This document shows, in pieces, positions 5,766 through 6,092 of a stretch of DNA of 64,000 bases; within the stretch, counting starts at the first letter, position 1, and the number at the start of each line of letters is the position of its first letter. Position numbers and translations under genes: made by a program. This DNA comes from Escherichia phage EC.P1. The notes below the pieces were generated by a model, which saw only the letters and a list, made by a program, of their open reading frames with translations, ran no database searches and was not told the DNA's origin. The stretch lies in the sequence record PQ657772.1; one strand, written 5' to 3'.

Positions 5766-6092
5766 TTAACGACCAAATGTTTGAGCAGAGATGCGTGGAT
5801 CAGTGTCAGATACCAAACTTACTGCTGCTGGATAATCAACGAGATTCATTTTAATACCATCAATCTCAATAGTTCTCGACCAACGACCGTGGTCAATTAG
5901 AATCCATTGTCCTTCTTTGATATCGGTAATGTCTTCACCAACAGAATATACTTTAGCCCAACGACAACGAATACCACGTATCTTACCATCATCACTTGTC
6001 AGTACAATACCACCTGCGGTTTTACGCTCACCATGTTCTAGTTCAGTTACAATAACTTTACCTTTACAAGCTGTCATTACTTTATTGGTCAT
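5766..6092 (-). CDS. Cpn10/GroES-like co-chaperonin (divergent; possible T4 gp31 analogue)
   Basis: KVIVTELEHGERKTAGGIVLT matches the GroES signature (..AGGIVL..); 108 aa. Confidence 0.45.
   Translation of the reverse strand: MTNKVMTACKGKVIVTELEHGERKTAGGIVLTSDDGKIRGIRCRWAKVYSVGEDITDIKEGQWILIDHGRWSRTIEIDGIKMNLVDYPAAVSLVSDTDPRISAQTFGR

Follow-up and report, generated by a model that had tools for sequence, protein, structure and literature searches.

A gp31-like, roofless Cpn10 gene in a 121Q-type giant coliphage and its canonical GroES-type paralogue

The co-chaperonin GroES of E. coli, gp31 of phage T4, and CocO of phage RB49 are the closest described systems to the gene considered here. CocO is a phage-encoded roofless relative of GroES that uses host GroEL (PMC5649160, citing Ang et al. 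2001), and the adaptations of the roof and the loop in gp31 and CocO have been described (PMC6318259, PMC5649160). In jumbo phages, a comparative survey noted HSP10 in genomes without HSP60 (PMC7824862), and two GroES-like ORFs have been published for the related phage CBB (PMC5259590). In GenBank records of near-identical phages, the gene described below is annotated as co-chaperone GroES, chaperonin, or head morphogenesis protein. As two copies have thus already been annotated and published for relatives, finding them is ordinary and carries little weight as a discovery. The divergent gene is not mentioned in the fEgEco12 genome paper, nor are chaperonins in the main text of the PA5oct omics paper. 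What is added here is that the “second” copy is of a gp31-like, roofless, long-loop type and probably the core copy of a whole supergroup, that the link to a virion operon belongs to the canonical copy, and that relatives have tandem and fused Cpn10 forms.

The window (the whole stretch of 64,000 nucleotides that was analysed) comes from a 121Q/PBECO4-type giant coliphage. The divergent gene and its ribosome-binding site are located as follows:

5766..6092, minus strand: divergent Cpn10-like (putatively gp31-type) co-chaperonin gene, 108 aa (ORF, Pfam, PHROG, AF2, Foldseek, dN/dS)
6099..6103, minus strand: AGGAG ribosome-binding site, 6 nt 5′ of the ATG, overlapping the end of the upstream gene (sequence reading)

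The translation of this ORF is MTNKVMTACKGKVIVTELEHGERKTAGGIVLTSDDGKIRGIRCRWAKVYSVGEDITDIKEGQWILIDHGRWSRTIEIDGIKMNLVDYPAAVSLVSDTDPRISAQTFGR, and all three peptide stretches quoted in the initial annotation are present in it; that annotation gave no strand, and the gene lies on the minus strand. This is a genuine gene under constraint: purifying selection on it is strong (dN/dS 0.054 against 121Q gp58), an orthologue is present in 87 phage records (41-100% identity among the matches listed), and metagenomes contain 611 cluster representatives related to it.

Its Cpn10-like character, proposed from the sequence at the outset, is above chance by several measures, including the orthologue records and the dN/dS ratio just given. 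The Pfam model Cpn10 (PF00166) scores 22.6 bits, a small margin over the gathering cut-off of 21.1, and the match spans only model positions 4-65 of 93. PHROG 931 matches residues 1-78 with E 3.7e-20, its profile probably already including 121Q-like members, and PHROG 3188 (GroES) matches with E 5.5e-6. The NCBIfam GroES models (NF0015xx) give at best 15.3 bits, far below their cut-offs of 109-130 (130 for the best one). Judged by these profiles, the divergent copy is not a cellular-type GroES orthologue.

The predicted structure points in the same direction. The AF2 model of the divergent copy has a pLDDT of 82.6 and a pTM of 0.76, with low confidence confined to the loop and the C-terminal tail. 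A Foldseek search against the PDB has nothing but GroES/Cpn10 chains and gp31 in its first 26 ranks (best E 6.8e-5, TM 0.55-0.67; gp31, 1g31, at rank 20), and after these come only GroES-fold dehydrogenase domains; the BFVD fold matches that carry names are all viral co-chaperonins. The divergent copy is thus predicted to be a single-domain Cpn10 beta-barrel, and the possibility raised in the initial annotation, that the fold might be a different one, is not borne out by the model and its matches in either database. Conservation extends to the N-terminal strand, where V13 and V15 hardly vary within the family, and the model places a C-terminal strand at residues 91-95. In GroES, the N- and C-terminal strands form the inter-subunit contacts.

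Three elements of the divergent copy are located as follows:

5964..6041, minus strand: mobile loop, residues ~18-43, 5 residues longer than in GroES (pLDDT, hhalign, spacer counts)
6000..6008, minus strand: tripeptide Ile29-Val30-Leu31 after Gly27-Gly28, the presumed GroEL contact (GroES alignment, family conservation)
5913..5936, minus strand: short turn EDITDIKE where GroES has its roof beta-hairpin (gaps in hhalign, AF2)

In the AF2 model, the mean pLDDT falls to 61 for residues 21-30 and to 53 for residues 31-40, and exceeds 90 on either side. The loop tip ‘AGGIVLT’ is common to the divergent copy and E. coli GroES (‘KSAGGIVLT’) in the hhalign alignment. Among 43 family members, G28 is invariant and I29 nearly so, and the tripeptide [IV][IV][LIF] is retained in nearly all members of the family. 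The GroES hallmark is therefore kept, as had been claimed: a glycine and a hydrophobic tripeptide within a low-pLDDT loop align to I25-V26-L27 of GroES. Mimicry of the host co-chaperonin by the loop tip was considered and dropped, the tips of PA5oct (GGIIF) and Atu_ph07 (GGIIL) having no obvious match to the GroES of their hosts.

The initial annotation also spoke of insertions. Relative to E. coli GroES, these are indeed found in the mobile loop (+1 and +4 residues, hhalign) and as a C-terminal tail of ~12 residues; what it missed is the most revealing difference, a deletion of the roof hairpin. The gap at the roof amounts to 9 residues both against GroES and against the canonical phage copy described below, and at this position there is no gap between the divergent copy and gp31 (hhalign). 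The AF2 model has no strand there, and the model of the canonical copy has a hairpin. Spacer counts agree: the distance from the tripeptide to ‘VG’ is 19 residues in the divergent copy, 15 in GroES, 16 in gp31, and 13 in the canonical copy, and that from ‘VG’ to the next turn is 8, 17, and 10 residues in the divergent copy, GroES, and gp31, respectively. The absence of the roof does not exclude membership of the Cpn10/GroES family since the roof is also absent from gp31 and CocO (PMC5649160). The family has, in addition, invariant residues of its own (R44, W45, R70, and W71) that have no GroES counterpart. The distal arm of the loop carries invariant D34, G40, R44, and W45 in the 43 members and, for this reason, may be structured rather than freely mobile.

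The relation to T4 gp31 is evident at the profile level. T4 gp31 itself matches PHROG 931 (E 3.7e-50), and hhalign aligns the divergent family with the gp31 family at a probability of 94.7% (E 6e-8), with E. coli GroES at 76% (E 2e-5), and with the canonical phage copy at 69.9% (E 4e-5). On this evidence, the divergent copy belongs, as a remote member, to PHROG 931, the cluster of T4 gp31. The link is found only with profiles, as phmmer with T4 gp31 against all ORFs of the 64-kb window gave zero matches. The gp31-type C-terminal half is absent: the alignments end at about residue 69-78, and the segment HGRWSRTIEIDG... has no gp31 counterpart. Moreover, the loop extension lies on the distal arm in the divergent copy and on the proximal arm in T4 gp31, so the likeness could be partly convergent. 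A direct hhalign comparison of gp31 with GroES gives E 0.036. Because the divergent family comes closer to each of the two than they do to each other, it may link cellular GroES in sequence to T4 gp31, which is otherwise an orphan.

A tblastn search with E. coli GroEL found 252 phage records, and ‘Escherichia’ was not among the ten commonest names (at least 7 records each), which leaves at most 6 ‘Escherichia’ records against the 33 Escherichia records of the clade that has the divergent copy. HSP10-bearing jumbo phages have likewise been reported to form a different set from HSP60-bearing ones (PMC7824862). A phage-encoded GroEL partner was accordingly rejected on the record counts; for the ~310 kb of the ~375-kb genome outside the window, we infer the same. 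As no phage GroEL was detected in the clade, host GroEL would have to serve both of them, as it serves T4 gp31, and a gp31-type lid on host GroEL is the most likely mechanism.

We therefore favour, with a probability of about 0.6, the reading that the divergent gene encodes a gp31-type lid that re-tools host GroEL and that it is the core copy of its supergroup. The product would be a gp31-type co-chaperonin with a Cpn10 beta-barrel subunit of ~12 kDa; the subunits would assemble into a heptameric lid, which would dock on host GroEL via the Gly-Gly-Ile-Val-Leu tip of the flexible mobile loop. The five additional loop residues and the roof deletion, which in T4 gp31 enlarge and open the GroEL cage, may do the same here, and host GroEL would thereby be re-tooled for one or more phage proteins. 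The cage volume is 194,000 cubic angstroms with GroES and 210,000 cubic angstroms with gp31.

The description of the gene as a “second” copy, one of two paralogues, holds true: a canonical Cpn10 gene lies 48 kb away.

54344..54646, minus strand: canonical GroES-type paralogue, 100 aa (Pfam, PHROG, hhalign, AF2, Foldseek)
54914..54921, minus strand: TATAAATA, T4-late-promoter-like motif, 5′ of a unit of a Zn-ribbon gene, the canonical Cpn10 gene, and a virion structural gene

Translation of the canonical copy starts at an ATG after a GGAGG site, the mechanical ORF call beginning 21 codons earlier at a GTG. Pfam Cpn10 matches it over its full length with 60.2 bits and PHROG 3188 with E 1.9e-26; hhalign aligns it with E. 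coli GroES at 98.3% with the roof retained, and the two are 37% identical over 67 aligned columns. It also stays below the cut-off of the NCBIfam GroES model (54.7 vs 120). Compared with the divergent copy, this PHROG 3188 member has the same Cpn10 fold and the loop tip G-G-I-I-L, its roof hairpin is present, and its loop is shorter (13 residues after the tripeptide vs 19). It shares an operon with the Zn-ribbon gene and the virion structural gene behind TATAAATA, and this occurrence of the motif is one of only three matches in 64 kb. An ATAAATA motif has been proposed as a late promoter in CBB and GAP32 (PMC5259590).

The initial annotation had suggested that one copy could serve host GroEL and the other be specialised for a capsid protein. 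Such a division of labour is weakened and appears partly misframed. The major capsid protein of the clade has 42 kDa (PMC7247149), compared with 56 kDa for T4 gp23. The idea that an oversized capsid protein calls for an enlarged cage was rejected in this form: at only 42 kDa, the protein would fit the normal GroEL-GroES cage, so the T4 rationale is not directly transferable. A divergent copy specialised for the capsid is further weakened by the fact that the canonical copy holds the place in the operon with a virion gene. The divergent copy has both structural adaptations of gp31, the deleted roof and the longer loop, which favours specialisation as such.

In another explanation, the divergent protein has no special client and would act, as RB49 CocO does, as a generic substitute for GroES or a booster of it. 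Both copies would then be functionally redundant lids differing mainly in timing, the divergent one early/middle from a sigma-70-like promoter and the canonical one late with virion genes, and together they would raise the co-chaperonin supply in a long, protein-rich infection. A 42-kDa capsid protein that needs no enlarged cage agrees with this, as do the Cpn10 fold and the G-[IV][IV][LI] loop tip of both copies and their different promoter-like contexts, although the promoter assignments are consensus matches only. It has also been reported that every E. coli client of GroES can be served by gp31 and by CocO instead (PMC6318259; Keppel et al. 2002, as cited in PMC5259590). However, a very wide family shows both the roof deletion and the loop extension without exception, which speaks for a selected structural difference rather than drift, and the two paralogues are kept side by side in phages of at least nine host genera. 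We regard this explanation as unlikely, though it stands first among the alternatives to a gp31-type lid.

The distribution of the two types supports the status of the divergent one within the gp31-type reading. No other type was detected in PA5oct-like phages, Atu_ph07, and Phosso, which speaks for a capacity to work alone, and both copies occur together in Rak2-like phages of enterobacteria, Vibrio, and Xanthomonas. From its being the sole type in PA5oct, Atu_ph07, and Phosso, it looks like the group’s core co-chaperonin and not an accessory one. The divergent type would thus be the core, and probably the ancestral, co-chaperonin of the Rak2/121Q/PA5oct/Atu_ph07 jumbo-phage supergroup, and the canonical gene 48 kb away would be an additional copy restricted to the enterobacterial, Vibrio, and Xanthomonas branch. 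In PA5oct, the divergent gene has no ESI-MS/MS note of the kind that nearby structural-protein genes carry, which suggests that its product is not a virion protein.

All enterobacterial members carry both paralogues, and this fits another alternative, namely that roofed short-loop and roofless long-loop subunits co-assemble into mixed heptameric lids, as in the chloroplast Cpn10/Cpn20 system, giving an asymmetric, partly open lid on host GroEL. Metagenomic relatives include fusions of a GroES-type domain followed by a divergent domain (P0149, P0226) or in the reverse order (P0185), as well as double or triple divergent domains (P0140, P0142, P0141). Most of the fused or tandem forms lie at the orthologous locus, after a DnaE fragment and a small partner gene; P0140 was found in two independent samples, and on contig L005 a single 99-aa Cpn10 gene is followed by a double-domain gene. 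In Arabidopsis, Cpn10(1) is reported to be functional only as a hetero-oligomer with Cpn20 (PMC4242682). Nevertheless, a hetero-oligomer cannot be obligate, given that PA5oct-like phages, Atu_ph07, and Phosso have the divergent type only, and in the window the two genes, separated by 48 kb, belong to distinct transcription units whose promoter-like motifs differ. Most of the contigs with fusions are short and were seen once, some long matches are clear assembly chimeras, and fusion may reflect only tandem duplication at the co-chaperonin locus. Long ‘multi-domain’ matches such as P0232 (whose C-terminal half resembles ribosomal protein L5) and P0277 were rejected as such chimeras. Mixed lids would give the chloroplast Cpn10/Cpn20 system a viral parallel; they appear to us somewhat less probable still than a generic booster.

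The divergent gene lies amid replication genes, in a conserved triad headed by a DnaE fragment, and not among head genes:

6504..7022, minus strand: stand-alone 172-aa DnaE palm fragment, first gene of the triad (Pfam PF07733, E 5.8e-9)
6486..6515, minus strand: sigma-70-like promoter before a two-gene unit (consensus scan only)
6096..6440, minus strand: conserved 114-aa partner gene, directly upstream (PHROG 14844)
5728..5754, minus strand: intrinsic-terminator-like hairpin and T-run, 12 nt past the stop codon (consensus scan only)
5440..5709, minus strand: 89-aa ORF between the Cpn10-like gene and the clamp loader (PHROG 16539, E 4.5e-45)
4460..5413, minus strand: gp44/RFC-like clamp-loader subunit (Pfam DNA_pol3_delta2 and AAA; PHROG 168, E 1.7e-78)

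The placement “next to the clamp loader” is thus nearly exact, with one 89-aa ORF between the gene and the gp44-like clamp loader. The DnaE fragment matches PHROG 11127 over its full length and NCBIfam DnaE models at positions 280-395, and a sequence search of the PDB gave no match for it. The partner gene ends with its stop codon 3 nt 5′ of the Cpn10-like ATG and has zero matches in Pfam, NCBIfam, and a PDB sequence search; it is found in the same position in 121Q, PA5oct, Atu_ph07, Phosso, Vibrio phage 2.275.O, and metagenome contigs. The promoter consists of TTGAAA, an 18-nt spacer, and TATAAT with an extended -10 TG (11/12 consensus matches). The ‘TGAAACG’ -35 promoter class of CBB/GAP32 had zero exact matches, and a relaxed pattern matched only this known promoter, at chance level, so that assignment to the class cannot be claimed.

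Such a neighbourhood raises the question of whether the Cpn10 fold has been recruited outside the chaperonin system, as an assembly or adaptor subunit of a replication module together with the DnaE-palm fragment and the 114-aa protein. The triad of DnaE fragment, small protein, and Cpn10-like protein is kept from coliphages to jumbo phages of Agrobacterium, Sinorhizobium, Vibrio, and Pseudomonas and in metagenome contigs, the partner and Cpn10-like genes overlap or lie 1-13 nt apart, and a clamp loader is nearby; the invariant R44, W45, R70, and W71, not found in GroES, could also belong to such a role. On the other hand, of all GroES-like features in the family, the GroEL-binding loop tip is conserved best, every significant fold match is a co-chaperonin, and fusions are always to other Cpn10 domains and never to replication domains. 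T4 gene 31 likewise lies outside the head-gene cluster, and large myoviruses commonly keep their core genes syntenic over long ranges, from which functional coupling need not follow. A replication role thus seems improbable, the least credible of the alternatives considered. The gp31-type reading is preferred. The two-copy system could help with a modest but tractable question, namely what use a virus has for two different lids on a single host chaperonin and how T4 gp31 originated.

Among known systems, T4 gp31 (1G31, 2CGT) is the best profile-profile partner of the divergent copy, with which it shares the PHROG cluster, the Cpn10 barrel, and the roofless state. In both proteins, the mobile loop is ~5-6 residues longer than in GroES and a hydrophobic tripeptide follows a Gly (PMC6318259). 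Both come from large myoviruses that have no GroEL of their own, as far as can be inferred for the divergent copy. Their identity is only ~18-23% and limited to the N-terminal ~70 residues. The divergent family differs from T4 gp31 by invariant RW and GRW motifs specific to it, and the likely client of the divergent copy is not an oversized capsid protein as in T4 (42 kDa vs 56 kDa). The divergent gene also coexists with a canonical GroES-type gene, which T4 is not known to have.

E. coli GroES (1AON) has the fold in common with the divergent copy (TM 0.58/0.64 to 1aon_O), with ~20-22% identity in fold alignments; the divergent copy differs from it in the missing roof hairpin (-9), the longer loop (+5), and the added C-terminal tail. 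RB49 CocO, which stands in for both GroES and gp31 and has been validated experimentally, is likened to the divergent copy by its published description. Finally, the pairing of Cpn20 with Cpn10 in chloroplasts and apicoplasts (PMC4242682, PMC3542282) is mirrored by the tandem two- or three-domain proteins that relatives have beside single-domain copies; these tandem forms come from metagenome contigs only, and the two genes of the window, unlike Cpn20/Cpn10, are both single-domain and unlinked.

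The window comes from a jumbo coliphage of the 121Q/PBECO4 type (Asteriusvirus-like, 'Rak2-like'), and over positions 4000-8000 it shares 99.9% identity with Escherichia phage WPEC5, 99.8% with fEgEco12 and 81% with 121Q. The initial annotation had placed a second, divergent Cpn10-like gene here, beside the clamp loader, and all the peptides that it quoted are present in the translation of the minus-strand ORF. The gene and its surroundings are as follows.

6504..7022, minus strand: stand-alone DnaE-palm fragment, 172 aa, DnaE positions about 280-395
6515..6486, minus strand: strong sigma-70-like promoter match (consensus scan: TTGAAA, 18-nt spacer, TATAAT, extended -10 TG; 11/12)
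6096..6440, minus strand: small partner gene, 114 aa here, about 115-135 aa in its family; N-terminal motif conserved, tail charged (partner-family alignment A4)
6 nt 5' of the divergent-copy ATG, minus strand: ribosome-binding site AGGAG, overlapping the end of the preceding gene
5766..6092, minus strand: divergent Cpn10-like ORF, 108 codons
5754..5728, minus strand: terminator-like hairpin directly 3' of the divergent-copy stop codon (consensus scan)

The preceding gene's stop codon lies 3 nt upstream of the divergent-copy ATG. In the consensus scan, the promoter match precedes the 114-aa gene, itself 5' of the divergent copy, and the promoter-like and terminator-like matches at either end suggest that the two genes form one transcription unit.

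The divergent copy is real, and its match goes beyond chance. Pfam Cpn10 gives 22.6 bits against a gathering score of 21.1, covering model positions 4-65 of 93 only, while PHROG 931 matches at E 3.7e-20 and PHROG 3188 (GroES) at E 5.5e-6. One orthologue each was found by tblastn in 87 phage records (identity from 100% to 41% among the matches listed), and an exhaustive metagenome profile search yielded 611 cluster representatives of the family, 283 of them at E <= 1e-10. Compared with 121Q gp58, dN is 0.075 and dS 1.39 (dN/dS 0.054). The proposed Cpn10 barrel, as opposed to another fold, is borne out by an AlphaFold2 model built from an alignment of 43 family members (pLDDT 82.6, pTM 0.76), in which only residues 21-40 and the C-terminal 8 residues have low confidence. 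Foldseek searches of the PDB with this model returned GroES/Cpn10 chains at ranks 1-26, T4 gp31 (1g31) among them at rank 20 (best E 6.8e-5; TM-scores 0.55-0.67), followed by GroES-fold domains of dehydrogenases with E above 0.03; the named matches in the top 50 from BFVD are all viral co-chaperonins.

As to the kind of Cpn10, profiles of the divergent copy (A1, n=43), the canonical phage copy (A2, n=24) and the T4 gp31 family (A3, n=25) were compared by hhalign. A1 matches the gp31 family with a score of 49.9 (E 6e-8, probability 94.7%), E. coli GroES with 33.9 (E 2e-5, 76%) and A2 with 33.6 (E 4e-5, 70%). A2 matches GroES with 79.9 (E 1e-14, 98.3%) and the gp31 family with 28.0 (E 3e-4, 39%), and the gp31 family matches GroES with only 16.5 (E 0.036, 1.4%). 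T4 gp31, used in a sequence identical to PDB 1G31, defines PHROG 931 (E 3.7e-50). By these comparisons and the PHROG 931 membership of gp31, the divergent copy belongs to the gp31 cluster as a distant member and, in sequence space, falls between gp31 and GroES, although its match to T4 gp31 is limited to the N-terminal ~70 residues.

That the gene is a 'second' copy also holds, since E. coli GroES, used as query against every ORF of the window, gave a better match at 54344..54709, 48 kb away. The features of this region are listed here together with all three occurrences of the T4 late-promoter consensus in the window.

54344..54646, minus strand: canonical Cpn10, 100 aa, starting at an ATG (54646) preceded by GGAGG
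9730..9737, minus strand: TATAAATA motif, 12 nt before an 807-aa virion protein gene (start 9718)
43646..43653, minus strand: TATAAATA motif
54914..54921, minus strand: TATAAATA motif, ~60 nt before the Zn-ribbon/GroES-type/virion gene unit

The canonical copy gives a full-length Pfam Cpn10 match of 60.2 bits, matches PHROG 3188 at E 1.9e-26 and E. coli GroES by hhalign at 98.3% with 37% identity, and its predicted model is a Cpn10. The mechanical ORF call (54344..54709, minus strand) opens at a GTG 21 codons 5' of the likely true ATG, and the upstream Zn-ribbon gene (54648..54854) stops 1 nt before that ATG. The unit, in the order Zn-ribbon gene, Cpn10 and virion structural gene (PHROG 13349), lies downstream of one of only three TATAAATA motifs; a similar motif, ATAAATA, was proposed as a late promoter in CBB and GAP32 (PMC5259590). 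The motif is rarer than expected (3 sites in 64 kb vs 7.5), and two of the three sites are just 5' of structural-gene units. Just downstream of the canonical unit, on the strand opposite to their neighbours, lie two paralogous virion structural genes, 52277..52876 (+) and 52892..53581 (+), both PHROG 9326. The divergent copy might merely stand in for GroES, redundantly or with different timing, which we consider unlikely.

Both paralogues occur together (tblastn) in Rak2-like phages of Escherichia, Salmonella, Klebsiella, Erwinia, Yersinia, Serratia, Cronobacter, Pectobacterium, Xanthomonas and Vibrio. The canonical type went undetected at tblastn E <= 1e-3 in 11 records of PA5oct-like Pseudomonas phages and in the phages Atu_ph07 (Agrobacterium) and Phosso (Sinorhizobium). 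As the only type detected in these phages, the divergent one looks like the core co-chaperonin and is presumably able to act alone.

In all the loci compared, the divergent copy is preceded by the DnaE-palm fragment and the small partner gene, and 0-5 small ORFs separate it from the clamp loader downstream. This triad spans very distant jumbo phages (window 6096..7022, minus strand, and loci L002, L003, L005, L006/L007, L008-L011 and L013), with the partner gene 1-13 nt from the Cpn10-like gene or overlapping it. The partner protein, with the motif RG..VDMD.L..QNE..VAVGN.NMNARGD.LG.GG.V..TREE and a charged tail, has no Pfam, PDB or NCBIfam match. The 172-aa 'DNA polymerase III alpha' ORF is a whole member of a conserved stand-alone family (PHROG 11127, with positions 1-171 of 171 matched); its end (...GRGSSVASYCL...EFLKW) appears to fall just short of where, by comparison with E. 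coli DnaE, the catalytic aspartates would lie, and it cannot by itself be a polymerase. A non-chaperonin role of the divergent copy within this conserved, replication-linked triad seems very improbable. In a metagenomic relative, the clamp-loader gene beside the Cpn10 locus appears split (L006, 8697..10943, and L007, 3793..6039) into a 207-aa AAA N-terminal part and one of 243 aa, each with faint intein-splicing matches; the 290-aa ORF with a TnsA-like endonuclease domain between them suggests a mobile-element or intein insertion.

Among the best 150 of the 611 metagenomic representatives, at least six carry several Cpn10 domains.

P0149, P0226: GroES-type then divergent domain
P0185: divergent then GroES-type domain
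P0140, P0142: two divergent domains
P0141: three divergent domains

These proteins come from loci L004-L008, L012 and L013. P0140 (found in two samples), P0141, P0149 and P0226 occupy the orthologous locus, downstream of the DnaE fragment and small gene; P0185 and P0142 were left out of this assignment, their contigs being too short or too dissimilar. The double-domain gene of L005 has a single-domain Cpn10 gene ahead of it. P0232, P0277 and P0254 were rejected as chimeras, probably assembly artefacts; in P0232 a Cpn10-like N-terminal part is joined to sequence resembling ribosomal protein L5, so multi-domain matches from single short contigs call for caution. The tandem and fused relatives are reminiscent of chloroplast Cpn20 and Cpn10, which are reported to work in one lid (PMC4242682), and by this analogy the GroES-type/divergent fusions are a hint that both domain types can do so as well. 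The same fusions speak for mixed heptamers of the divergent and canonical copies, but an obligate hetero-oligomer is at odds with phages having the divergent type without the canonical one, and we regard mixed heptamers as quite unlikely.

That such phages carry two GroES-like genes is already known at the annotation level: 'Two ORFs encoding GroES-like proteins' are stated for CBB (PMC5259590), HSP10 in jumbo phages is discussed in PMC7824862, and GenBank labels in near-identical and related phages read co-chaperone GroES, chaperonin or head morphogenesis protein. The literature yielded no experimental study of either gene. The observation in the initial annotation is confirmed. Its interpretation is partly supported, for the Cpn10 fold and the presence of two co-chaperonin paralogues; the suggested division into one copy for host GroEL and one specialised for a capsid protein stays a conjecture and is partly misframed.

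The reading that we prefer, at a probability of roughly 60%, is that the divergent copy acts as a lid of the gp31 type on host GroEL. A tblastn search with E. coli GroEL matched 252 phage records, and 'Escherichia' is absent from the ten commonest names among them (each with 7 or more records); Escherichia records of the divergent-copy clade alone number 33 (tblastn with the divergent copy). From this search of phage records we infer the use of host GroEL. According to a comparative survey, jumbo phages with HSP10 are a different set from those with HSP60, and HSP10 might recruit host HSP60 (PMC7824862).

The lid would dock on host GroEL through its GGIVL loop tip, 'KTAGGIVLT', which is nearly identical to 'KSAGGIVLT' of E. 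coli GroES; in the divergent family G28 is invariant, I29 nearly so, and nearly all members have the hydrophobic tripeptide at the tip. From this tripeptide to 'VG' there are 19 residues in the divergent copy, 15 in E. coli GroES, 16 in T4 gp31 and 13 in the canonical copy; between 'VG' and the following turn, at the position of the roof, sequences and alignments give 8, 17, 10 and 17, respectively. Relative to E. coli GroES, the divergent copy has a loop longer by 1 and 4 residues and a roof hairpin shorter by 9, and its model has no strand where that of the canonical copy has a small hairpin. The absent roof and longer loops may widen or open the GroEL cage for phage clients. The argument made for T4 does not carry over to this phage, since the major capsid protein of the clade is 42 kDa (PMC7247149). 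Against T4 gp31 itself, the divergent copy shows no roof gap and an equal total loop length, the extra residues lying in the proximal arm in gp31 and in the distal arm in the divergent family. In gp31, a loop of 22 rather than 16 residues and the lack of a roof are described as enlarging and opening the cage, and the roof is likewise deleted in CocO (PMC6318259; PMC5649160). These two cage-enlarging changes of gp31, the longer loop and the missing roof, are exactly those found in the divergent copy.
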